The notes: generated by a model not told the origin, from the letters alone. A DNA stretch of 64,000 nt from an uncultured Candidatus Saccharibacteria bacterium (GCA_964512315.1 CAZEIK010000001.1:20408-84407); one strand, 5' to 3'. Positions 3,288 through 60,059 are shown, counted from the first letter of the stretch. A program made the numbers and translations.

Positions 3288-4181
3288 ATGAATAAAAACC
3301 ATCTTTTAGAACAAAGGTCAACTAATAATATTAAGACTTTTATTTTATTAGCAGGCATAACTGGAGCGATACTAGCTCTCGGGTACCTGGTTTCTATCGC
3401 CACAGGTAATACTAATTATCTCTGGATGGCCTTTATTATTGCTTTGGTGCAGAATGTCGCTAGTTACTTTTTTTCTGATCGTATTGCTCTGTCTATGAGT
3501 GGGGCGGTGCCAGCCGACGAGCAGAAGTACGCCGACCTACATGAAATAGTCGCAACTCTTGCAAGTAAGTATGACTTACCAAAGCCATCTGTCTACGTTA
3601 TCAACGATCCAGCACCTAATGCTTTTGCTACTGGTCGTAACGCTGAGCATTCAGCGGTGGCTGCAACCACGGGCTTACTCGCTATGCTTAATCGTGGAGA
3701 GTTGGAGGGTGTTATGGCTCACGAGCTGAGCCACATTAAGAATAAAGACATATTGATAATGTCTGTAGTTGTGGTTATGGCTAGCGTCTTGTCTACTCTT
3801 GCCAACTTTGCCATGCATGCATCATTTGTTGGAGGTAAAGATAGGAACAATAACGCACTCGTTACAATTATAGGAGTGGTTGCGAGTCTAATTATCCCAA
3901 TAGCTGCAGTAATAATACAATCATCAATATCAAGGAAGCGTGAGTTCATGGCAGACGCGGGAGGAGCGTTACTTACTGGATACCCAGAGGGACTAGCGAG
4001 CGCTTTAGTAAAGATTTCTAATTTTAAGCAGCCAATGCAGAACGCTAATCCAGCAACTGCACACCTTTATATATCTTGCCCATTAGGCGGAACTGAGCAT
4101 CAGACATTTTTCCAGAAGCTGTTCATGACTCATCCTCCAGTTGCTGAGCGCGTTGCTGCTCTTCGTGGTGAGACAAATTAG
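3288..4181 (+). CDS. htpX: HtpX-like M48 membrane zinc protease
   Basis: HELSHIKNKD zinc motif (HExxH), N-terminal TM helices. Confidence 0.85.
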   Translation: MNKNHLLEQRSTNNIKTFILLAGITGAILALGYLVSIATGNTNYLWMAFIIALVQNVASYFFSDRIALSMSGAVPADEQKYADLHEIVATLASKYDLPKPSVYVINDPAPNAFATGRNAEHSAVAATTGLLAMLNRGELEGVMAHELSHIKNKDILIMSVVVVMASVLSTLANFAMHASFVGGKDRNNNALVTIIGVVASLIIPIAAVIIQSSISRKREFMADAGGALLTGYPEGLASALVKISNFKQPMQNANPATAHLYISCPLGGTEHQTFFQKLFMTHPPVAERVAALRGETN

Positions 4182-4795: not shown

Positions 4796-5689
4796 ATGAA
4801 AAAGGCACTTGTATTATCATTTTTTATAGGTGCCTTTTTCATTTCTAATGTATTCGCTTTTGATATTCCTTATAAAGCGTCTGGATTCGTTAATGACTTT
4901 GCTAATGTTTTGTCGAGTGACAAAAAAGAAGAATTAGAGCAAGAGCTGTCCAACTTTAGAGCAAGCACTACAAATGAAATAGTAGTAGTCATAATCCCAA
5001 ATATGTCGGGGAGGTATATTGAGGAGTATGCGACTCAAATGTTCCGTGAGTGGGGAGTTGGTTCAAAACAGAATAACAATGGAGTTTTACTTTTAATTTC
5101 CCTAGAAGAAAGAAAAGACAGGATAGAAGTTGGATATGGCCTCGAGGGTGCGCTCACAGACCTGCAAAGTGATCAAATTTTAAAAACAGTTAATACATAT
5201 TTGAAAGAGGGCGACTATGACTCAGCTGTTCAGGTTGGGGCAAGCAGTATAATGTCTGCCGTGCAGGGCGAGTACAAAGCTGAAGACAACTCGGCGCCCA
5301 CAGCTTTTCTTTCTAGCTTGAGTCCTGATGTATTCATGGGGGCGATATTCTTTTTCTTCTTTTTCGTTATACCTTGGACTGCTGCGATATTAGGCAGGAC
5401 TAAGAGCTGGTGGTTAGGTGGTGTTGTGGGTTTCGTTTTGGCTGCTTTGTTGTTCGTATTTCTGATCAAAACATTATTCGTGTTCCTGTTAACATTAATT
5501 GGTTTACTCTTTGACTATGTAGTTTCTAAGAATTACGGCAAAGCCAAGTCGTCAGGCTCGGATCCTTCTTGGTGGGCGGGAGGCAGGCATATGGGTGGCG
5601 GATTCGGAGGGTTCAACTCCTCATCGGGAGGCTTCGGCGGATTCGGCGGTGGGTCATCAGGCGGAGGCGGCTCAAGTAGCAGCTGGTAG
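4796..5689 (+). CDS. TPM-domain (YgcG-like) membrane protein with Gly/Ser-rich C-terminal tail
   Basis: signal peptide, TPM phosphatase-like domain, TM segments, GGFGGF low-complexity tail. Confidence 0.7.
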   Translation: MKKALVLSFFIGAFFISNVFAFDIPYKASGFVNDFANVLSSDKKEELEQELSNFRASTTNEIVVVIIPNMSGRYIEEYATQMFREWGVGSKQNNNGVLLLISLEERKDRIEVGYGLEGALTDLQSDQILKTVNTYLKEGDYDSAVQVGASSIMSAVQGEYKAEDNSAPTAFLSSLSPDVFMGAIFFFFFFVIPWTAAILGRTKSWWLGGVVGFVLAALLFVFLIKTLFVFLLTLIGLLFDYVVSKNYGKAKSSGSDPSWWAGGRHMGGGFGGFNSSSGGFGGFGGGSSGGGGSSSSW

Positions 5690-35497: not shown

Positions 35498-36144
35498 TGA
35501 GCAACTGTAAAAGCTATCACACTTTTTACACCGCTTGGAATCAATAACTTTCTTATTTCGTAAAGAGTAACACCGGTTGTGGTTATGTCATCAATGATTA
35601 TTACGTCTTTATTTTTAATTTCTTCTAAAAATTGATCGTTAACAGTAAAAGAGTTTTCTATTTCTATTTTCCTTTCGTCTATATTTTGAGTTTTGAAAAG
35701 CTTGTTGGTATTTTTGGTTCTAGTTAATGCATCGCAAATCTTAAAATTATTGTTCCCATTCGCTAGGCCGCCTGCTACAGACAGCGCCTGGTTATAACCT
35801 CTTTCTGAGAGTCTTGATTTTGATATTGGGACGGGGATGAGTAAGAATTGTCCATCTTTTACTTTTTGTTTTAAGTGGTCACGTGAGTATTGTCCTAAAA
35901 TATATCCAAGTTCCTCAACGTGATCATACTTTAACTTGAAAAGAAGTTTCCTTACGTCACTGTCTTCGTAGGAGTATTTGCTATGTATCCAGTCTGGTAG
36001 TGTTCGATGGTTTAGCTTAAGTCTGGACTCACACTCTTCACATAATAGATAATTATATTTGTCACACAAAATACAAAATTTTGGGAATAATAATTTACTT
36101 AAAATGCTTAGAAGTTTTGTTAAGCTCACAATAAAAGTATACAA
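35494..36144 (-). CDS. comFC: ComF-family phosphoribosyltransferase-domain protein
   Basis: N-terminal CxxC...CxxC zinc finger, C-terminal PRTase motif VIIIDDITTTG. Confidence 0.6.
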   Translation of the reverse strand: MYTFIVSLTKLLSILSKLLFPKFCILCDKYNYLLCEECESRLKLNHRTLPDWIHSKYSYEDSDVRKLLFKLKYDHVEELGYILGQYSRDHLKQKVKDGQFLLIPVPISKSRLSERGYNQALSVAGGLANGNNNFKICDALTRTKNTNKLFKTQNIDERKIEIENSFTVNDQFLEEIKNKDVIIIDDITTTGVTLYEIRKLLIPSGVKSVIAFTVAH

Positions 36145-41260: not shown

Positions 41261-42088
41261 CTAGTTCTCGATTTTGTTAAGGTAAGAGTTGATGTTAGAT
41301 AGGACTTTTTGAGTGTCGTTTATCTTGTTTACAATTGTCTGGGCGCTGGTAAAGAGGTCGCCAGTCCAAGAGAAAATAGCTAAGACACTACCGAGGCCTA
41401 TTCTGCCACGAAGGAATAGCGAGACGGCTATTATGAGTGATAAGTAACGGGTGAAGATTATCAATAGCTCGCGCCTGTGCCCGTGGGTAAGTCCGTAGCT
41501 GAGGGTTAGGGTGTGATATTTTAAGAAGTTAAGGCTTCGATGTTTCCAATTCTCTTCGTTCTTCTCTGCCATGTTGTTGTGTAGTGTTGCGAACTTTTTG
41601 ATCCAGAGTATTAATATGGCTATCTTTATCATACACAAGACTGCGATAAAAGGTGAGTAGTAGGATATAGCTAAGACAATAAGCGTTAGGTATGAGAGGC
41701 TGGGTAATATGTAGTTAAAGTAATTAGTCACCAGTAGGTTGATGCCTTGCTCACCTTTTAACTTGATAGTATCACTCGAGTCTAGATTCTTCTCTGAGAA
41801 GTTCTCCAAAAAAGTGTGTAGCTTAACTTCTAATTTCTTGAGGCTGTGAAGCTTCTGGAAAAGTTCAGCACGATTAAGTATAAGTGAGACTATAGGATAA
41901 GTGAGTAGCCACAAAACAACCATGTTAACGTCCTTGATGTATAGATTATTAATTATCTCAGAGAGGAGTAGGGTGAGTAGTATCTTAGATATTTGTATAC
42001 AAAAGTTAACCAAGAATTGAACATAGAAGTCCTTATGGAAGGGCTTGAGCATTCTCCAAATCTTATATATAAAAAACTTCTCTTTCAT
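41261..42088 (-). CDS. ABC exporter transmembrane domain only (NBD-less paralog of the 11029-12789 gene; possible pseudogene remnant)
   Basis: N-terminal 50 aa nearly colinear with the 11029 gene product (W-x-LKPFH-x-DFY-x-Q); ORF stops where the NBD would begin; no NBD remnant before tRNA-Glu. Confidence 0.5.
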   Translation of the reverse strand: MKEKFFIYKIWRMLKPFHKDFYVQFLVNFCIQISKILLTLLLSEIINNLYIKDVNMVVLWLLTYPIVSLILNRAELFQKLHSLKKLEVKLHTFLENFSEKNLDSSDTIKLKGEQGINLLVTNYFNYILPSLSYLTLIVLAISYYSPFIAVLCMIKIAILILWIKKFATLHNNMAEKNEENWKHRSLNFLKYHTLTLSYGLTHGHRRELLIIFTRYLSLIIAVSLFLRGRIGLGSVLAIFSWTGDLFTSAQTIVNKINDTQKVLSNINSYLNKIEN

Positions 42089-43064: not shown

Positions 43065-43094
43065 AATTATATGATTATAACATATTAATATTTC

Positions 43095-43245
43095 TTATCC
43101 CCTTCCTATATATATATACATATATATACTGTATAAGATGAGATCGCCTGTTCGTGGATTCACTTTATTAGAGCTAATAGTAGTCATAGCTATTATAGGA
43201 GTATTGTCAGTAATAATAATACCGAGTTTTAGGACGGCGCTGGAT
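43095..43245 (+). repeat. copy 1 of a duplicated ~150-200 bp pilin promoter + 5' CDS cassette (TTATCCCCTTCC box, interrupted TA tract, first ~35 codons)
   Basis: ~85% nucleotide identity to 54880-55030. Confidence 0.7.
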
Positions 43246-43932
43246 AGGGCTAATGATACAAAGTTGAAACAGTTTGCTATCACATTAGATAAGAAGAATG
43301 ACATTATAAATAAATATGATTTTGAAGAGGGTTCAGGATTGTTGTCAAAAGATAGCAATGTATATCAACGAAACAATTTAACCCTCCCAGGTTCTGGTGT
43401 TACATTTAGTCAAAATACATATTCTAGTTCCTCGGCTTACTCTTTACTATTTGATGGTACTAGTTTTGTTACTTCTCAAAATAACCTACCCGTTATTGAT
43501 GGCAAGTCATTTTCGGTGTCGGTTTGGGTTAAAAAAACTCAATCTGACCCATTGAAGAAAACCTTATTTGGTAAATATTCTGGCCTTAATGGATTAGTAT
43601 TTGTTTTTAATAATAATATATTTGCAGTTGAGCGAGCAGGTTTTGTGTCTTGTTCATTGCCATATTCCAGTGATACAAATTGGCATCATTATGTTTTTTC
43701 TTTTAACTCTAATTCAAACATGGGGGTTATTTATGTTGATTCAAAAAAAGAAAATCAATGTAATATGGGAGGGGTGTATGTTGGTAACGATACTCAGCCA
43801 ATAATTTTGGGTCCTGCTATTAATGCTACTTATATGGATGATTTAAGGTTCTTTGATAAGGATATACTTTCCAGTGAAGTGCAGAAGTTATATGCCGAAG
43901 GGCTCAGTAGTGGCAAGTTTGCGAACAGGTAA
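43138..43932 (+). CDS. type IV pilin-like protein (prepilin cleavage/methylation N-terminus) fused to a LamG/concanavalin-like domain
   Basis: MRSPVRG|FTLLELIVVIAIIGVLS class III leader with Glu+5; C-terminal jelly-roll-like region shared with the 54926 paralog. Confidence 0.7.
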   Translation: MRSPVRGFTLLELIVVIAIIGVLSVIIIPSFRTALDRANDTKLKQFAITLDKKNDIINKYDFEEGSGLLSKDSNVYQRNNLTLPGSGVTFSQNTYSSSSAYSLLFDGTSFVTSQNNLPVIDGKSFSVSVWVKKTQSDPLKKTLFGKYSGLNGLVFVFNNNIFAVERAGFVSCSLPYSSDTNWHHYVFSFNSNSNMGVIYVDSKKENQCNMGGVYVGNDTQPIILGPAINATYMDDLRFFDKDILSSEVQKLYAEGLSSGKFANR

Positions 43933-51741: not shown

Positions 51742-52134
51742 ATGGCAATCTTACGCAAGTATTTAGAATATCTGAAGCGTGAGAGAAAAGAAATACAAAA
51801 AGTTCATGCTGTTTTTGTTGCAGCAATAATGACGGCATTTTTTACGGGTATTTACTTATATGTTCTGTACGACATAACTCCACCAAAGCCAGAGATTAGT
51901 TTCAATCAAAGTCATATCTATGTAAGAGATCCTAATTCTGATTTTATTAATAACAATACTATAAATGACATTCAGGTAGACAACAGTGAATATTATGCGA
52001 AGCAGAATGAGAACAAGTTAACTGGAATATTAGATAGGTTTGCAAATGCTTTTGTTGGCTTCCAAGCGGAGATAGAAAATTTGAAGCAAGTATTGCAATC
52101 AGAGAAGACTTATAAAGCGGAAACAGTGGAATAA
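51742..52134 (+). CDS. hypothetical single-TM protein
   Basis: ORF with one TM helix and coiled-coil C-terminus. Confidence 0.35.
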   Translation: MAILRKYLEYLKRERKEIQKVHAVFVAAIMTAFFTGIYLYVLYDITPPKPEISFNQSHIYVRDPNSDFINNNTINDIQVDNSEYYAKQNENKLTGILDRFANAFVGFQAEIENLKQVLQSEKTYKAETVE

Positions 52135-52170
52135 TTAGCGCTTTTTGTGTTATAATGTATAGACAAAAAT

Positions 52171-54642
52171 ATGGCAAAAACTAGAGAAGAGCAAGGTCAA
52201 AATGAAGACGAAAACAAGCCAATAACAGGTATAATAAATGCTCCTATAGTTGAGGAGATGCGCAAGAGCTATCTTGATTATGCGATGAGCGTTATTACAA
52301 GCCGCGCCTTGCCTGATGCGAGAGACGGTCTCAAGCCAGTACATCGTCGCATATTGTACAGTATGTATAAGAATGGACTTTCTCCATCTGCTAAGTTCAA
52401 GAAGTCAGCTACAGTAGTAGGAGATGTACTAGGAGCATATCACCCTCATGGTGATGCGTCTGTGTATGATGCTATGGTGCAACTTGCTCAAGATTTCAAG
52501 TCAAGATATCCTCTCGTGCTCGGTCAAGGTAACTTCGGATCAATAGATGGTGACGGTGCTGCTGCCTACAGGTATACAGAGGCTAAGATGAGTAAGGTTG
52601 CAGCTGAGATGATGCAAGACATAGAGAAGGAGACTGTAGACATGAGGCCTAACTATGACGGTAGCAAACGCGAGCCAGTGGTACTTCCAACAACAGTGCC
52701 AGGGTTACTACTTAATGGAACTTTGGGTATTGCTGTAGGTATGGCTACCAACATCCCGCCACATAACCTGGGTGAAGTAATAGACGCAGCCACACATTTG
52801 ATAGATAACAAAGATGCAACTATTGATGATCTGGCTTCTTTTATAAAGGGTCCGGACTTCCCAACTGGAGGATTAGTGTTCGGCGAGTCAGATATTAAGC
52901 ATGCTTATGCGACAGGACGTGGCGGAATGCTCTGTCGTGGTGAAGCGGAAATAGTTGAGACCAAGAATGGAATGTTCCAAATTGTTATCACTTCTATTCC
53001 ATTTCGTGTTGTTAAGGCGAACCTTCTAGAGAGAATAGGAGAGTTGGTGGGTGAGAAGAAAATAGAAGGTATCAAAGATATACGTGACGAGTCTACTACA
53101 GACATACGTATTGTTATAGACCTAAAGAGCAATTCTCAACCAGAGAAGATTTTGAATTATCTATACAAGCATACCGATCTTGAGACAACTTTCCACATGA
53201 ACATGGTAGCTCTTGTTAAGGGTGTACCACAGACTCTTTCTATTAAGGGTGCTTTGTCAGAATTCTTGGACCATAGAAAAGAAGTCGTTCGTCGCAGATG
53301 CGAGTTCGATTTGAAGCGTGCTCTTGAGCGTGAGCATATATTGTTAGGACTTAAGAAGGCTCTCGATCATATAGACGAGATAATACAGACTATTAAAAAG
53401 TCCAAAGATACCCCTGATGCACACGCGCAGTTGATGAAGAAGTTCGGCTTTTCTCCAATTCAGGCTACAGCTATTCTTGAAATGAAATTGCAGCGTCTAG
53501 CTGGACTTGAGCGCAAGAAAATAGAGGATGAGCTCAAGGCTGTACAAGAGCTGATCGAGGAGTTGCGTGCAATACTTGCTAGCGAGAAGAAAATGCTCAA
53601 GATCATTAAGGATGAGTTGGTTGAGGTTAAGAAGTTATATGGCGACGAGAGACGTACCAAGGTAGTTAAGCACAAAGCCAAAGACTTTAACCCAGAAGAC
53701 CTGATCGCTGAGAAGGAGGCCGTGCTAGTTTATACCAAGGGTGGTTATATTAAGCGTACTGATCCAGAGGAGTTCAGAACACAGAAGCGTGGAGGAGTTG
53801 GTGTGGTTGATCTCGATACAAAAGAGGAGGACTTCGTTTCTATATCGCTCACCGCTTCGACTCATGCCGACATGTTATTCTTCACCGACAAAGGTAAGGC
53901 TTATCAGATCAAGATGTATGAATTACCAGAAGGTAAGCGTGCCACAAGAGGTAAGAGCATAATGAATTTCTTACAACTAACAGAAGGTGAGAAGGTTACA
54001 AGTATATTAGAAGTCGACAAAGACAAAGACTATTCAGCGCTAAGTATTATGATGGTGACTAAGAATGGTGTTGCCAAGAAATGCGCAGCTGAAAGCTTTA
54101 AAGATGTACGCAGAAGTGGAATCATCGCTATTCGTCTCGAGGATGCTGACGAGTTGGTTACTACAATACTAACAGGTGAAGGTGATAGCGTGATACTGAC
54201 TTCTCAAGACGGTCAATCGATCAGATTCGCCGAGAGCGATGTGCGTGAGATGGGTCGTACTGCAGGAGGAGTAACAGCAATGAAGCTAGACAAGGGTGAC
54301 GTGATAGTTAGCGCTCAAGTAATAGATGCTAGCAACAAAAAAGCCAAGCTTCTTATATTAACTGCTAATGGTTACGGCAAGATGACTGAGATAACTGAGT
54401 ACAAGATACAAAAGCGCGCTGGTAGCGGTATCAAGACTGTAAAAGTAACAGACAAAACTGGTAAGTTGGTAGTAGCTAGAATTGTAGGTGAAGGTACAGA
54501 AGAGATATTAGCTATTTCTAAAGCTTCTCAAGTTATCAAGACTGAACTTGCGACTATCCCGACACTAGGACGCGATACACAAGGCGTGCGTGTTATGAAG
54601 TTACGCGAAGGCGACTCAATTGCTGGGTTAAATCTTCTTTAA
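52171..54642 (+). CDS. gyrA: DNA gyrase subunit A
   Basis: AAMRYTE active-site Tyr region, QRDR motif, C-terminal beta-pinwheel repeats. Confidence 0.9.
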
Positions 54643-54851
54643 TTCACGCTTACTATTTTGTGGGGGTGGAGGTGGCCGCTGACTATTTTGATATTGGAGT
54701 TAGGGTGATGCTCACGAAGAATTTCTAATAGTCTCTGATTGGCGAGTCCGCGCTCCGCAGGAGCGCGGACTGATATCTCATACAACTCACTATTTATAAC
54801 TTTAAAAGAGTCATCTTTTGCGTCCGGTCGTAGATGTATCTTTATATACAT
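54639..54851 (-). CDS. DUF167 (YggU-like) small protein
   Basis: 70 aa, conserved IVSG-x-L-x-P-x-KIV motif typical of UPF0235/DUF167. Confidence 0.45.
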
Positions 54852-54879
54852 GTGTATACTTTATCATAAAATAATTTCC

Positions 54880-55030
54880 CTCTTATCCCCTTCCATATAT
54901 ATATATATATATATATACTCAAAACATGAGACATCATGTTCGAGGTTTTACTTTACTAGAGTTAATAGTAGTAATAGCTATAATAGGTGTATTGTCAGTA
55001 ATAATAATACCTTCATTCAAAACAGCATTA
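54880..55030 (+). repeat. copy 2 of the duplicated pilin promoter + 5' CDS cassette
   Basis: ~85% identity to 43095-43245 including the TTATCCCCTTCC box and first ~35 codons. Confidence 0.7.
54895..54917 (+). repeat. (AT)11 dinucleotide microsatellite in the pilin promoter, 8 nt upstream of the ATG
   Basis: uninterrupted ATATAT... 23 nt; the paralogous copy at 43107-43128 is interrupted by C. Confidence 0.9.
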
Positions 55031-55699
55031 AGTAGAGCTAATGATACAAAGTTAAAACAAAATATTACCAACATAATAAAAAGGTATGATGTAATTGCAA
55101 AATGGGAGTTAGAAGAAGGGTTCGGTAATATTGCCAAAGACACATCTATCAATCAAATAGATAATACAATACAGAATAATGCCACGATACCAGGCTCAGG
55201 AGTGACTTGGTCTACAGACACATATGCTAGCTCTTCACAGTATTCACTCGCATTTAATGGTACTAACTATTTAACTACAGTTAATAATACTTATCCAAAA
55301 TTAGATGGTTCGTCATTCTCTTTTTCGCTTTGGTTCAAGAGAACTGGAGGATTTGGTGTGGGAGACAGAATGCTTTTAGCTAAGGGCACCCATGGGACAA
55401 GGCAGTGTCTTGCTGTTGGATTTAGAGATGATGAGTTGATGATAGGTCCATGGGGTCCTGAGTATATGACAGGATTGCGTATTACGGATCAGAATTGGCA
55501 TAATCTTATGTTTAGTTTTGACGCTAGCACAAACATTGTGACCGCCTATGTAGACAACAGATTAATTGGACGAGGTAACTGGGGAGGGTCACTAGCAAAC
55601 ACAGATTCATATCCGCTAAGGATTGGTACTTATGGTGGTGGTAACTTTATAGGTAACATCGACGATGTTTATTATTTTAAAGATCTTATCGTTAAGTAA
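54926..55699 (+). CDS. type IV pilin-like protein with LamG/concanavalin-like domain (paralog of 43138-43932)
   Basis: identical MR..VRGFTLLELIVVIAIIGVLSVIIIPSF N-terminus; shared downstream blocks (GSGVT-S-TY-SSS, DG-SFS-S-W-K-T, NWH, YVD, DD-FFD). Confidence 0.7.
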   Translation: MRHHVRGFTLLELIVVIAIIGVLSVIIIPSFKTALSRANDTKLKQNITNIIKRYDVIAKWELEEGFGNIAKDTSINQIDNTIQNNATIPGSGVTWSTDTYASSSQYSLAFNGTNYLTTVNNTYPKLDGSSFSFSLWFKRTGGFGVGDRMLLAKGTHGTRQCLAVGFRDDELMIGPWGPEYMTGLRITDQNWHNLMFSFDASTNIVTAYVDNRLIGRGNWGGSLANTDSYPLRIGTYGGGNFIGNIDDVYYFKDLIVK

Positions 55700-55754
55700 A
55701 ATCTTGTGAACATATAAGTTTTACTGTTTTGTTTTGATGGTATAATTTTGTTAT

Positions 55755-56273
55755 ATGGCATTTCTGTCCCCAAGACAAATGGTTGACTTGTTAGACATAA
55801 CACCAGGGTCTACGGTGGTGGATTTGGGGTCTGGATCTGGAGCTTATGTGTATGAAGTTTGCAAAGTTAATGGCCCGCATGGAAGAGTAATAGCAGTAGA
55901 TATAGACAGAGATAAGTTACAAATGGTTGATTCCGCAGCTAAGATAGGCGGCTACAAAATAGATACATTACTAGCTGACCTAGATAAAAGCATTATTTTG
56001 CCTGATTATTTTGCTGATTACATTATCCTCGCTAACACTTTACACTTGGTTGATAACAAGCTTGGACTACTGCGTGAGTGCGCAAGAATGCTTTCTCCTA
56101 CTGGTTACATGTTGTTGGTTGACTGGAGTTCTGATTCTAATTTGGGACCAAAGAGTGATAAACTAGACAAGACGTCCCTTGTGGCATCTCTGGCTGCGGC
56201 CAAGTTACGTGTGAGACGCGAACTACCAGCCGGGGATCATCATTTTGGATTTATAATAGAACCGCTAAAATAA
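55755..56273 (+). CDS. class I SAM-dependent methyltransferase
   Basis: VVDLGSGSG motif I, acidic motif II (VDID), 172 aa. Confidence 0.6.
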   Translation: MAFLSPRQMVDLLDITPGSTVVDLGSGSGAYVYEVCKVNGPHGRVIAVDIDRDKLQMVDSAAKIGGYKIDTLLADLDKSIILPDYFADYIILANTLHLVDNKLGLLRECARMLSPTGYMLLVDWSSDSNLGPKSDKLDKTSLVASLAAAKLRVRRELPAGDHHFGFIIEPLK

Positions 56274-56274
56274 A

Positions 56275-57627
56275 ATGGACAAACCAAATATATTTAAAAT
56301 AGTAACAGTAGGAATAGGATTATTCATAGGAATATTTGCTATATTAGTTTTTAGTGGCAAGATACCAGGGTTAAGTAACTCCTCAACGGCTAATGCTAAT
56401 AAGCCAACGATAAATGTTTGGGGCACTATACCTGAGGACGCCTTTACTTCTGCTGCTTCAGAGATGTCTATTAGGACTGGTAAGCAGACATCTATTGCTT
56501 ATACATATATACCAGCTGAGCAATTCGCAGACAAGCTTTCTCGCGCTGTTGCGGTTAATTCTGCACCGGACCTAGTGCTAGCTCAGCATGACATATTGCT
56601 ATCAGTTAATAGCTTGCTGTACCCAATGTCTTATACTTACATGTCAGAATTGGAGTACAAAGACACTTTTGTAGACGCGACTCATGCATTTGCTTTGCCA
56701 TTCGGTGCCGTATTTTATCCAGTCTTAATCGACCCAGTAATCACTTTTTACAATCGTGGCATGTTAAGTCAAAAAGGTTTTACAACACCAGTTAAGACTT
56801 GGAATGATTTGGCAAAGTATCAAAAAGAGTTAACTGAGTACGATGTGAGTGGCAAGCCGAAACAGAGCGCTTTTGCAATAGGTGCTTACTTGAATGTTGC
56901 ATACGCCAAAGATATCTTAATGGCTATGATTATGCAGTTGGGCCATATTCCAGTTACTGCTATTTTCTACACAGATGCTAGTAACAAAATTGTCGGTAAT
57001 ATTAATACTGACGTCGGACTGGGTACAACAGGTGACGATACTGTTCCGGACTTGGTTAAGTTGCTCCGCTTCCAATCAGCCTTTAGCGACCCACAGAAGA
57101 CAACATTTACTTGGAGTGAGTCAGGTGACAGAGATATAAGCATGTTCTCAAGAGGACAATTGGCATTCTATTTTGGAAGAGCTAGTGACATGAATAAAGT
57201 TAGAGGTGTAAATAAAAACATAGATATAGGTATTACTTACTTCCCGCAATTCTCTGGCTCTAGTTTGGTTGTTACAAGTGGTTCAATATATGGAGCCGCT
57301 CCTGTTAAGACAACGTCTGATCCCGTTTATGCAATCTCAGTTGCTAGAAAGTTCTCAGATAATGTATTCTCGTCCGTGCTCTCTAGTGTGTTAGGTATGT
57401 CTTCAGCGAGACGTGACGTTCTGGCTGGTACTGATGGATCCGAGAGGGCAGAAGTCGTCGGTAGAAGTGCCCTAATTATGAAGAGTTTCTATGATCCTAA
57501 TCCTATCAACTCTAGCGCTCTGGTTAGAGGTCTGTATGACAATATATTATCGGGGCGCAAGTCAATATCAGAAGCGGTGGATGCATTTGATAGAGACTGG
57601 TCAAAATTATATACTAGTAACAAATAA
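56275..57627 (+). CDS. N-terminally anchored extracytoplasmic solute-binding-protein-like protein (SBP family 1-like)
   Basis: TM/signal anchor, then alpha/beta pattern resembling ABC substrate-binding proteins; no cognate permease or ATPase adjacent. Confidence 0.45.
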   Translation: MDKPNIFKIVTVGIGLFIGIFAILVFSGKIPGLSNSSTANANKPTINVWGTIPEDAFTSAASEMSIRTGKQTSIAYTYIPAEQFADKLSRAVAVNSAPDLVLAQHDILLSVNSLLYPMSYTYMSELEYKDTFVDATHAFALPFGAVFYPVLIDPVITFYNRGMLSQKGFTTPVKTWNDLAKYQKELTEYDVSGKPKQSAFAIGAYLNVAYAKDILMAMIMQLGHIPVTAIFYTDASNKIVGNINTDVGLGTTGDDTVPDLVKLLRFQSAFSDPQKTTFTWSESGDRDISMFSRGQLAFYFGRASDMNKVRGVNKNIDIGITYFPQFSGSSLVVTSGSIYGAAPVKTTSDPVYAISVARKFSDNVFSSVLSSVLGMSSARRDVLAGTDGSERAEVVGRSALIMKSFYDPNPINSSALVRGLYDNILSGRKSISEAVDAFDRDWSKLYTSNK

Positions 57628-57632
57628 AAATT

Positions 57633-58316
57633 ATGCCAGCTGATACAATAGACGGAAACACAACTAAGCTAGTAACTTGCGGTAATGTAGATCAGAAAGT
57701 TTGTCAGTTGTCGGATTTGTTTTCTGTGGCTAATTTGTTCGCAGAATATGTAATCAAGTTTTTCTTACCAACACTTTTCTTCGTCGGACTGTTCTTAACT
57801 TTTTGGCCTATAATTAAGAATCCGAGTTCAGCTGAAGCCTTAGCCGAAGCAAAAGGTAGATTCATTAAGCTATTAATAGGAACAGTCGTAGTGGTGGGGG
57901 CGTATCTTATTGTTAGGGTGGTTCTTCTGAGTATTGGAGTAGACAGCGGATCAGGTGTACTTCAAAAAGCTGTAGGCGGCAAGCCTTCTCTTAACGTTCC
58001 ATTTATAGAAAGAGTTTATGCAGCAGAAGACACTGAGAATACTGGTAAGTTCAATAATCCACTAGACTCTGTGTCTATTCAAACAGTAGTAGCCGGTATT
58101 GCGAACATTGTAGTTTATCTTGGTACTATTGGCGTTATTTATCTCTATATAAGAGGTGCTATGTATTTGGTTATGAGTCAAGAAAGGCCCGAGAATCTTT
58201 CCAAAGGTAAAAAGTATATATTTTGGGCTACGGTAATAGGGCTATGTATTTTTGGTGCTGAGATGATATATACTACTCTTGTAGATACAACCAATTCAAT
58301 TTTTAAAACTAAGTAA
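57633..58316 (+). CDS. tandem double 2-TM hairpin membrane protein (first and largest member of the hairpin family)
   Basis: two consecutive TM-loop-TM units; the second (GKKYIFWATVIGLCIFGAEMIYTTL) matches the family core. Confidence 0.4.
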   Translation: MPADTIDGNTTKLVTCGNVDQKVCQLSDLFSVANLFAEYVIKFFLPTLFFVGLFLTFWPIIKNPSSAEALAEAKGRFIKLLIGTVVVVGAYLIVRVVLLSIGVDSGSGVLQKAVGGKPSLNVPFIERVYAAEDTENTGKFNNPLDSVSIQTVVAGIANIVVYLGTIGVIYLYIRGAMYLVMSQERPENLSKGKKYIFWATVIGLCIFGAEMIYTTLVDTTNSIFKTK

Positions 58317-58319
58317 CAT

Positions 58320-58733
58320 ATGCTGAAAAACATTACAGATCTATTCGACGGACTTAACAAATTAATAGGTGGAGGAGTCACTACATTTTTAATGGGGCTA
58401 GCTTTTGTAGCCTTCCTCTTATCTATTATTAATTTTATTTGGAAGAGAAGGTCAGGAGATGGTGACGGTGTGCAAGATGCCAAGAACATGTTGGGCTGGA
58501 GTATTGTGGCGCTGTTTGTGATGACGGCGGTGTGGGGGTTGGTTACTTTTATAAGTTCTGCTCTGGGCGTGGACGGTCAGACAAGTATCAAACGCCCTCA
58601 GACAGTATTCACAAGCAGCTCGACTAACACAACAGGTAAAAAAGCAGCAGGTGAGACTTGTACAAACAACTCTGATTGTCAGAGTAATAGTTGTTACTTA
58701 GAAAAAACTTTAAGCAAGTACACTTGCCAATAA
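58320..58733 (+). CDS. 2-TM hairpin mini-protein, family member with Cys4 C-terminal tail
   Basis: TM1, loop KRRSGDGDGVQDAKNMLGW, TM2 SIVALFVMTAVWGLVTFIS; tail CTNNSDCQSNSC...KYTCQ. Confidence 0.5.
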   Translation: MLKNITDLFDGLNKLIGGGVTTFLMGLAFVAFLLSIINFIWKRRSGDGDGVQDAKNMLGWSIVALFVMTAVWGLVTFISSALGVDGQTSIKRPQTVFTSSSTNTTGKKAAGETCTNNSDCQSNSCYLEKTLSKYTCQ

Positions 58734-58746
58734 TTAATAAAATTCT

Positions 58747-59241
58747 ATGAAAAAAATAATTACAACTTTATCAATATTATCACTAGTTCAAGTAGTAGCG
58801 GCTCAGCAAGTTCTGAATAATGTCGAGACCATAGTCACAAAGTCATCCGGCATTATCGGTAGTGGAGTAACAGGCCTATTAATGGGTGTTACTTTTGTGG
58901 TGTTCCTAATATCTATCATTACATTCTTATTAAAGAGAAGATCTGGAGACGACAAGGGTCTACAAGATGCCAAGAATATGTTGGGCTGGAGCGTGATTGC
59001 TATGTTCGTTATGGTTGCTGTGTGGGGCTTGGTTACATTTATTTCTCAGACTTTTAATATAGGGCTCGGCGGGCAAGTTGCCAGACCTTCTGCTATCCCT
59101 ATAGAGAAAAATTCTAATCAACCTGGCGATACCCCAGGTTCTGGGTTAGGAGCTGTTGGTTCTGTTTGTAGTCAGCCCTCAGATTGTTTGAGTGGTAAGT
59201 GTACTGCAGCAGCTAATTCTTCTATAAAGACCTGTGATTAG
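58747..59241 (+). CDS. 2-TM hairpin mini-protein with signal peptide and Cys4 C-terminal tail
   Basis: signal peptide ...VVAAQQ; core KRRSGDDKGLQDAKNMLGWSVIAMFVMVAVWGLVTFIS; tail CSQPSDCLSGKC...KTCD. Confidence 0.5.
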   Translation: MKKIITTLSILSLVQVVAAQQVLNNVETIVTKSSGIIGSGVTGLLMGVTFVVFLISIITFLLKRRSGDDKGLQDAKNMLGWSVIAMFVMVAVWGLVTFISQTFNIGLGGQVARPSAIPIEKNSNQPGDTPGSGLGAVGSVCSQPSDCLSGKCTAAANSSIKTCD

Positions 59242-59243
59242 TT

Positions 59244-59555
59244 ATGACCACTTTAAAAGATTCTGTTAACTCAATAAGTGACTTCGTAGGTAACACTATT
59301 ACCAGCTTGCTTCTAACTGTTGCTGTTGCGGCATTCTTTTGGTCAGTAGTGATGTTTCTCTTCAATAGATCAAGAGGTAACACTGACGCGATGCAGGATG
59401 CTAAGAATAAGTTGCTGTGGAGTATTATCGGGCTATTTGTAATGTTTTCTATTTGGGGCATTATTACCTTTTTCCAAGAAGGTTTTGGAATAAAAGATAA
59501 AAACACTGTAAAAGTACCAAGTATTGAGGCTAGTTCTAACTCAGAGAGTAATTAA
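59244..59555 (+). CDS. 2-TM hairpin mini-protein, Ser-rich tail
   Basis: core NRSRGNTDAMQDAKNKLLWSIIGLFVMFSIWGIITFF. Confidence 0.5.
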   Translation: MTTLKDSVNSISDFVGNTITSLLLTVAVAAFFWSVVMFLFNRSRGNTDAMQDAKNKLLWSIIGLFVMFSIWGIITFFQEGFGIKDKNTVKVPSIEASSNSESN

Positions 59556-59642
59556 TACTTTAAGGGTTAAAGTGGACAAGCTATTGCTTATTAAAATTAA
59601 TATAGATACACTTAAGACTATACATATAGTATTTGTAAAATT

Positions 59643-60059
59643 ATGAAAAAAATTATTTCTTCTGTTACCGCTCTTGCTACTGTTGCAGTTGCTTCAGCTC
59701 AAACACAGCTTAATCTTCCTCAGGTTCCTCCTTCTGCTAACGGCGGATCACAAAGTAGTATTGGGCAAACTTTAATTAATATCGTTCTTCAATTCAAACA
59801 GATTTCAACCTTAGTTTACTCATCTCTGTTTGTTGTTGCTTTGATTTTATTCTTCTTCGGTATTTTCCAATACTTAGCACCAGGTAAAAGTGGTGAAGAC
59901 AGAAAGAAAGGTTATGAGTATATGGGCTTCGGTATCTTGGCTCTATTTGTGATGGTTGCTATCTGGGGACTTGTAACATTCATCTCTCAGACTCTTGGGG
60001 TAGGTATCGGTGGAGACATTATGACTCCTGGTGTACCAGTTAACGTTCGTACATATTAA
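59643..60059 (+). CDS. 2-TM hairpin mini-protein with signal peptide
   Basis: signal peptide ...VASAQTQ; core GKSGEDRKKGYEYMGFGILALFVMVAIWGLVTFIS. Confidence 0.5.
   Translation: MKKIISSVTALATVAVASAQTQLNLPQVPPSANGGSQSSIGQTLINIVLQFKQISTLVYSSLFVVALILFFFGIFQYLAPGKSGEDRKKGYEYMGFGILALFVMVAIWGLVTFISQTLGVGIGGDIMTPGVPVNVRTY

Follow-up and report, generated by a model that had tools for sequence, protein, structure and literature searches.

Two pilin-LamG genes of a Saccharibacteria genome are each preceded by a C-rich box and a tract of TA repeats, which raises the question of whether they share a copied promoter cassette through which both the expression and the sequence of the pilins can vary. A preliminary description of this DNA had read the two loci in that way, as a dispersed duplication of promoter and N-terminal region with TA repeats of the kind that drive phase variation of fimbriae and with the layout of pilin allele switching. 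Here we analysed the whole 64-kb stretch of DNA (the window), together with the loci of relatives, which were gathered by exact-protein look-ups and one metagenome pattern scan.

Two pilin-LamG genes and their shared upstream module

The window has a G+C content of 39.5% and comes from a member of Candidatus Saccharibacteria (TM7). When species-representative genomes were scanned with a profile of the family alignment, the close relatives were two Saccharibacteria MAGs only, and the remaining matches were mostly unrelated pilin N-termini of Acidobacteriota and others. One Logan contig (L002) was 100% identical to window positions 51926-58699. Gene A (43138-43932, plus strand) encodes 264 aa with Pfam matches to N_methyl (2e-07) and Laminin_G_3 (1.8e-10), and has trxB on one side and ftsZ on the other. 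Gene B (54926-55699, plus strand) encodes 257 aa with matches to the same two families (7.2e-08 and 8.4e-11, respectively) and is positioned downstream of gyrA. The genes, box and tracts of the preliminary description were all found at their coordinates, and the Pfam assignments agreed with its placement of the core genes ftsZ, ftsA, hisS, rpsA (S1) and gyrA between the two loci. Type IV pili are reported to be near-universal in the Saccharibacteria phylum (PMC11623550). No pilus machinery, prepilin peptidase included, was detected among the window genes scanned, and A and B are thus orphans amid housekeeping genes. Downstream of locus B, at 57633-60059 (plus strand), five small ORFs in succession, whose matches to PF18895 T4SS_pilin (VirB2-like) are weak to moderate, follow a methyltransferase and a solute-binding protein; this run is kept in the relatives L006 and L008.

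Both pilins carry the prepilin motif MRxxVRG/FTLLELIVVIAIIGVLSVIIIP, in which the leader ends in G and is followed by F-T-L-x-E and a hydrophobic alpha-1 helix. The layout of gene A comprises the prepilin leader (MRSPVRG/FTLLE), the hydrophobic helix and a LamG/ConA-like domain. Over the whole protein A and B share 44% amino acid identity (112/256), being near-identical in residues 1-46 apart from leader residues 3-4 and identical at about one third of positions beyond. The leader peptides, which had been described as identical, read MRSPV in A and MRHHV in B. The shared DNA, put earlier at about 85% identity, measured 81.7% over 180 nt (BLAST; 43093-43271 versus 54881-55059). Sequence matches in the PDB covered the pilin helix alone. 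An AlphaFold2 model of B (mean pLDDT 80) showed a helix (residues 10-53) and, after it, a beta jelly roll, and a Foldseek search with this model returned lectin-like ConA/LamG folds with E-values of 1e-6 to 1e-8, among them the lectin-like binding subdomain of BoNT/NTNH, domain 4 of the GH43 enzyme AbnA, pentraxin and the LNS domain of neurexin. A and B are therefore predicted to be modular type IV pilins that combine a pilin N-terminus with a predicted LamG/ConA lectin-like head. The genes are paralogous and complete, each with its own predicted promoter. At E<=1e-10 the pilin-LamG family comprises only 25 clusters; contigs were retrieved for part of the family, cluster members P0026-P0034 excepted.

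The upstream elements stand in the same order at both genes: the box CTTATCCCCTTCC, the TA tract, TATACT, 6-7 nt and the ATG. At locus A the box (43094-43106, plus strand) is followed by the tract (TA)6-C-(AT)4A at 43107-43128 (plus strand), which ends 9 nt before the ATG, and by TATACT at 43125-43130 (plus strand), 7 nt before the ATG. At locus B the box lies at 54882-54894, the tract (AT)11A at 54895-54917, ending 8 nt before the ATG, and TATACT at 54914-54919, 6 nt before the ATG, all on the plus strand. In each case the tract would be a promoter spacer and TATACT a putative -10 hexamer. The two boxes match at 13/13 positions; the C-rich sequence TTATCCCCTTCC stands at 43095 and 54883, and the exact common box is 13 nt long. 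Two exact copies of the box occur in the window, both in pilin promoters, with no third. Matches with two mismatches at 1350-1362 and 35829-35841 were at chance level, and the one that was inspected (1350-1362) lies within a coding region. The similarity between A and B begins abruptly at the box, with no alignment upstream of it. We also considered the reverse complement of the box (GGAAGGGG) as a Shine-Dalgarno site of a minus-strand gene; this reading was rejected because there is no such gene at locus B and the genome is generally without Shine-Dalgarno sites. An Rfam scan of the whole window found four tRNAs only and had no match at either pilin promoter.

The tracts stand out from the rest of the window. 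Apart from two T8 runs, the two tracts were the only simple repeats that a census of the 64 kb returned, and they were its only dinucleotide repeats of at least 5 units. The expected number of 12-nt TA runs was 0.00 in 100 dinucleotide-preserving shuffles, and the next longest TA run of the window measures 9 nt.

The start regions of all 65 genes of the window were compared. A Shine-Dalgarno-like motif was present at 4 of the 65, and TATAAT-like hexamers (TATACT, TATAAT) peaked 6-9 nt before the start codons, with 18 occurrences across the 65 genes, and were rare more than 20 nt upstream. Hexamers resembling a -10 element also clustered 12-17 nt before the start codons of the 65 ORFs. The scarcity of Shine-Dalgarno sites together with -10-like hexamers near the starts suggests that this Saccharibacteria lineage uses mostly leaderless or near-leaderless mRNAs, as it appears to from its gene starts. 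We found no paper on leaderless mRNAs in Saccharibacteria. Many of the -10 hexamers in the window have a TGn extension, and TATACT is a recurring variant among them. The pilin promoters A and B have neither a TGn extension nor a Shine-Dalgarno site, and the box is probably needed there because the extended -10 common at other promoters is lacking. Family members without the box (the P0004, P0014 and P0016 groups) have TATAAT or TAAAAT 6-7 nt before the ATG. No -35 consensus emerged among 29 window promoters aligned on their -10 elements. A generic sigma-70 scan gave no site at A and, at B, one non-conserved site upstream of the box, which was rejected because the homology between A and B starts at the box.

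In the promoter that we propose, the mRNA of each pilin gene would be leaderless and the TA tract would form the spacer between the box, in the -35 region, and the -10 hexamer TATACT; in the window this spacer would consist of 18-19 nt of TA repeats. The box would then lie at about -43 to -31 from the predicted transcription start, where it is a candidate -35-region element or class II activator site. We infer these roles of box and TATACT from geometry only. The earlier assignment of the TA tract to a promoter is probably correct, since the tract leads directly into TATACT, a hexamer conserved 6-7 nt ahead of the ATG, and the genome looks largely leaderless. A promoter model of this type, which places the -10 element 6-7 nt ahead of the ATG and dispenses with a Shine-Dalgarno site, could be used for gene calling and for genetic tools in Saccharibacteria.

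The module at five loci and its repeat-number variation

The module also precedes pilin-LamG genes at three loci of relatives beyond A and B, here called C, D and E. Locus A, between trxB and ftsZ, was seen in the window and in L001, L004, L015/16, L096 and L130-132 with the box CTTATCCCCTTCC and a TA-repeat spacer of 18-20 nt. Locus B, between gyrA and a methyltransferase gene, was seen in the window, L002, L003 and L005; its box is CTTATCCCCTTCC, with A as the last base in L005, and its spacer measures 19 nt in the window, L002 and L003 and 18 nt in L005. Locus C adjoins the GAPDH gene (L117-125) and has the box TTATTCACTTTC with an interrupted spacer of 18 nt. Locus D, between an ABC transporter gene and His_Phos_1 (L126-128), has the box CTAATCCACTTCC and a spacer of 25 or 27 nt of the form (AC)4(AT)n. 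Locus E, between rpoC and the rpsN operon (L133), has the box CTTATCCTCTTCC and a degenerate spacer of 19 nt. The metagenome scan, which used the pattern of box plus GFTLLE, recovered one contig. In 282 kb of Saccharibacteria loci the box with at most two mismatches occurred almost only upstream of pilin-LamG genes, and TATACT was kept in all box-bearing promoters compared.

Loci A, B, C and E, with repetitive and degenerate spacers alike, kept a distance of 18-20 nt from the box to TATACT. This constancy at four loci despite the spacer sequence supports a positioned promoter element. Loci C and E are presumably functional with degenerate spacers, in which case repetitiveness would not be required for promoter function. 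The distance of 25-27 nt at locus D does not fit a simple -35 role of the box; the long spacer there may be an expanded one, possibly in a low or off state, or another upstream element may be in use.

Several features of individual family members were noted beside this. The third paralogue, P0011 (locus C, L117-L125), was present in samples SRR11567528 and SRR11567520, the same samples that hold contigs identical to window locus B; an 81-kb NCBI contig carries it too. P0011 is probably part of the window's genome, which would then have at least three box-bearing pilin loci. In the contigs L107-L116, which encode P0014 and lack the box, ATTTTGTA/ATACAAAAT form an inverted repeat some 20-40 nt before the gene, just ahead of TATAAT; it could be an operator. 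In the P0016 group (L097-L106) the annotated start is ATG in 4 contigs and GTG in 6, with the upstream DNA otherwise near-identical. A GTG start is unusual on a leaderless mRNA, and in this group it could itself modulate translation.

Repeat number differed among near-identical strains, as expected for the slippage-prone tract of hif type that had been postulated. At locus D a single AT unit separates the contigs L126 and L128 from L127 in about 240 nt of otherwise unchanged sequence; all three contigs, from sibling JGI samples, encode one and the same protein. Among four strains compared at locus A, some 200 nt differ in nothing but the tract and a few leader codons, and each strain has a tract of its own: (TA)6C(AT)4A, (TA)7C(AT)3A, (TA)8C(AT)3A and TATAA(TA)4C(AT)4A. 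Interrupted tracts were invariant, both in 9 contigs at locus C and in 6 contigs of the TATAAT variant of locus A. The locus B tract (AT)11A was the same in three assemblies (window, L002 and L003), two of which belong to one sequencing series. Variation among pure tracts and constancy of interrupted ones fits slippage as their source. A further Logan contig, L129 (SRR23702464_254971, encoding P0012), which is listed in 6 samples, starts inside the TA tract, 16 nt before the ATG. This start may be an assembly break caused by tract-length heterogeneity, and we take it as a weak hint.

By analogy with the hifA/hifB promoters, gain or loss of TA units would shift the box relative to the -10 element and thereby tune or switch transcription. 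On/off switching of the pilin promoters within a population is a hypothesis, the differences recorded here being those between strains. Most assembled variants hold the distance from box to -10 at 18-20 nt, some of them through compensating changes: in the window and L001 the C of the tract is shifted by one unit with the length kept, and the L005 tract at locus B, (AC)6(AT)5A, has the same total length as (AT)11A. Such a kept distance would agree with switching as well as with selection on length; together with the invariant locus B tract, it favours a held length over on/off switching that is frequent.

These same data bear on the possibility that the tract is a static spacer, an AT-rich and easily melted or bendable stretch of a conserved pilin promoter, repetitive by chance, in which length differences are neutral or mildly deleterious products of slippage that selection corrects, with no adaptive switching. 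The box-to--10 distance kept in almost all variants, the exchange of AC for AT in L005 and the shift between the window and L001, the spacers of loci C and E, equal in length but degenerate and free of repeats, and the uniform locus B tract in three assemblies all suit such a spacer. It would not, however, account well for pure tracts of at least 11 units at several loci of a genome otherwise without simple repeats, nor for changes of plus or minus one unit in otherwise identical DNA. The locus D tract, 6-8 nt longer than the others, indicates that length is not always held, and modular pilins with a predicted lectin-like module are a surface class typical of contingency loci. We regard the static spacer as a serious possibility, albeit not the likely one.

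Origin of the shared 5' segment and mosaic structure of the alleles

In codons 1-46 of A and B there are 40 comparable codons, which specify the same degenerate amino acid in both genes, and 17 of these (43%) are synonymously different. The 5' segment is therefore not a recent DNA copy. The codons of the N-terminal part nevertheless match more often than codon usage predicts, in 23 of 40 cases versus 13.6 expected (P=0.002), whereas those of the rest of the gene do not (33 of 69 versus 27.8 expected, P=0.12). The excess could reflect either a more recent common ancestor of the 5' part or extra constraint on it. The coding similarity is most readily ascribed to ordinary purifying selection on the pilin leader and helix, to which older segmental recombination may have added. 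The non-coding box is a different case: a match of 13/13 against a background of 43% synonymously changed codons points to selection on a regulatory element. Thus, the part of the copied-cassette claim that stands is the conserved 5' part on variable, mosaic 3' parts; a recent copying event between A and B does not.

The mosaic structure was evident from nucleotide identity in sliding windows. Comparisons among P0001, P0007, P0009, P0002 and gene B of the window showed stretches of 100% identity in alternation with others of only 32-70%. P0001 and P0007 are 100% identical from the upstream region through approximately the first 300 nt, 32-70% identical in the 3' half and again 100% identical at the end. 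Between P0007 and P0009 identity is 100% in the 3' half and falls to 63-87% around nt 150-360, a region where P0009 agrees with P0002 at 100%. The 3' half of P0001, which occupies locus A in another strain, has 91-100% nucleotide identity to window gene B. Among loci B, C and D the identity is 90-98% for the 5' cassettes and about 45-55% for the 3' parts. These exchanges were seen between strains and between loci in metagenomes, and transfer within a lineage or between lineages could each have produced them.

Whole alleles also differ at a single site. At locus A the alleles of different strains have 54-58% nucleotide identity, and the flanking trxB and ftsZ genes 96-99%. Such divergent alleles between near-identical flanks mark locus A as a hypervariable slot within the species. 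A second hypervariable gene lies two genes from pilin A: a 275-aa ORF at 41261-42088 (minus strand), without a Pfam match, has about 60-84% nucleotide identity between strains in which trxB and ftsZ are 96-99% identical.

A MAG contig with the locus A pilin (L016, CAZGVC010000010.1) contains a direct repeat of 271 nt with 100% identity, at 3767-4037 and 4926-5196 (spacing 1159 nt). In it are found the 5' end of trxB, the region between the two genes with box and tract, and the opening 37 nt of the pilin gene. After the pilin gene come a terminator and some 100 nt from the 3' end of ftsZ; there the sequence passes abruptly into the interior of trxB, and the second copy of the 271-nt repeat closes the contig. 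The ftsZ'/'trxB junction is what a tandem duplication of a unit running from the trxB 5' end through promoter, pilin gene and terminator to the ftsZ 3' end would produce, with an assembly chimera as the alternative. In sample ERZ27282978 two alleles were recovered on short contigs with identical ends (L004 and L132), which is compatible with co-existing strains or with tandem copies.

Mosaic alleles of this kind recall pilE/pilS-type antigenic variation, in which the shared 5' segment would anchor the copying of silent 3' cassettes into an expression site within one lineage. The sharp borders between 100% identical and divergent DNA, the locus B 3' half found at locus A in another strain, the excess of similarity in the 5' cassettes of B, C and D over their 3' parts and the N-terminal codon match above chance all speak for such a system. 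However, a tblastn search of the 64-kb window with both proteins found the two full genes only and no silent, promoterless, truncated or partial pilin cassette. The family members recovered are without exception full genes, and each one with upstream DNA available has a promoter-like -10 hexamer just ahead of its start; the synonymous differences leave no recent conversion tract between A and B. As the window holds no silent cassettes and both loci are complete genes of the expressed type, the arrangement is not the Neisseria pilE/pilS layout, and the allele-switching layout that had been proposed was not borne out; we consider antigenic variation of this type improbable. That the A/B likeness is a coincidence of a universal pilin N-terminus and low-complexity AT-rich DNA, with tract differences due to assembly or sequencing errors, is extremely unlikely: type IV pilin N-termini are indeed conserved in all bacteria, the PDB matches reach the helix only and TA repeats are error-prone in Illumina data, but the non-coding box is the same at 13/13 positions in A and B and is found at five loci with its spacing kept but scarcely anywhere else, the tracts (22-31 nt) are shorter than the reads and, the longest one of locus D apart, also than the assembly k-mers, and the same variants are found in independent assemblies (L126 = L128; L004 = L015 = L130-132; L002 = L003 = window).

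Proposed mechanism and comparison with known systems

The reading that we prefer joins three components: a leaderless promoter with a repeat spacer, transcription tuned by slippage in that spacer, and recombining pilin alleles. We judge this full mechanism to be somewhat more probable than its negation. Its observed basis consists of the module anatomy, the conservation of the module at five loci, the repeat-number polymorphism and the mosaicism. From the predicted transcription start and the putative -10 and -35 elements onward it is conditional: slippage would have to proceed at a phase-variation rate, and expression would follow spacer length. The family would diversify in three ways, namely by exchange of segments between alleles and loci, by replacement of whole alleles between conserved flanks and, probably, by tandem duplication. 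The repeat changes among strains and the shuffled segments together suggest that these host-attached bacteria may be able to vary a predicted lectin-like pilin.

A more far-reaching version may be considered, in which the C-box, a YR-dinucleotide repeat, TATACT, the leaderless ATG and the leader and helix would constitute a portable module that has been duplicated to at least five sites. Repeat changes in the module would switch expression on and off or set its level, as a rheostat does, and the module would also anchor, at the 5' side, the recombination by which LamG modules are shuffled between loci; the resulting contingency system would let an obligate episymbiont alter the host surface glycans bound and hence its host range. 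The duplication suggested by the tandem ftsZ'/'trxB junction would be a means of seeding the module at several sites. We put this version forward tentatively, as possible but less than likely.

The locus described here provides a concrete candidate for variation of the host-recognition surface in these tiny genomes: a family of lectin-pilins whose alleles are shuffled within the species and whose promoters carry the only long simple repeats of the region. We found no paper on simple-repeat phase variation or on pilin mosaicism in the Saccharibacteria phylum.

The closest precedent for the repeat is the hifA/hifB region of Haemophilus influenzae, where (TA)9-11 between the -35 and -10 elements controls the fimbrial promoter (van Ham et al. 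1993, summarised in PMC2651432). The predicted pilin promoters resemble it in that a TA tract of roughly 11 units, polymorphic between strains, precedes a pilus or fimbrial gene and is flanked by an upstream element and a putative -10, and the promoter at locus A is likewise back-to-back with a divergent gene (trxB). The systems differ, however, in that switching and an effect on expression belong to hif, whereas the pilin case is known from sequence alone. The pilin tract, about 8 nt from the ATG, abuts a putative -10, in an apparently leaderless format, whereas the hif tract lies 100-225 bp upstream. The upstream element of the pilin promoters is a C-rich box with no recognisable TTGACA. Moreover, the product here is a type IV pilin and not a chaperone-usher fimbria, and the pilin module occurs at several dispersed loci.

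With Neisseria pilE/pilS the Saccharibacteria genes have in common that they encode type IV pilins with conserved 5' and variable 3' parts and form mosaics by segmental recombination. The Saccharibacteria copies are nevertheless complete, with no silent promoterless cassettes found in the 64-kb window or in the recovered relatives, and no G4 or other recombination-initiating element was identified for them; the exchange is documented between strains and loci in metagenomes. A further parallel is offered by babA/babB of Helicobacter pylori, which are expressed paralogous adhesins at separate loci with conserved ends and inter-locus chimeras, and in which a CT dinucleotide repeat in the coding region gives phase variation by frameshift. 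Expressed paralogues at separate loci, inter-locus chimeras and a dinucleotide repeat are shared by both systems, but in the pilin genes the repeat belongs to the predicted promoter, not to the coding region as in bab, and the proteins are of unrelated families.

At the protein level, the L-type-lectin-like minor pilin PilX1 of TM7x comes from the same phylum (PMC11623550), and type IV pili and lectin-like minor pilins of TM7x have been implicated in host binding, with host glycans proposed as the targets (PMC11623550). Modular pilins of Streptococcus sanguinis join a pilin N-terminus to a beta-jelly-roll lectin-like module (PMC8179133). A and B are like both by concept, as a pilin N-terminus fused to a lectin-like beta jelly roll; they differ in being smaller (257-264 aa) orphans amid housekeeping genes, outside a type IV pilus operon, and neither hypervariability nor a repeat-bearing promoter has been described for PilX1. 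Simple-repeat contingency promoters and mosaic pilins are both of known kinds; what appears to be unreported is their combination, in a leaderless promoter format, on orphan lectin-pilins of a CPR episymbiont.
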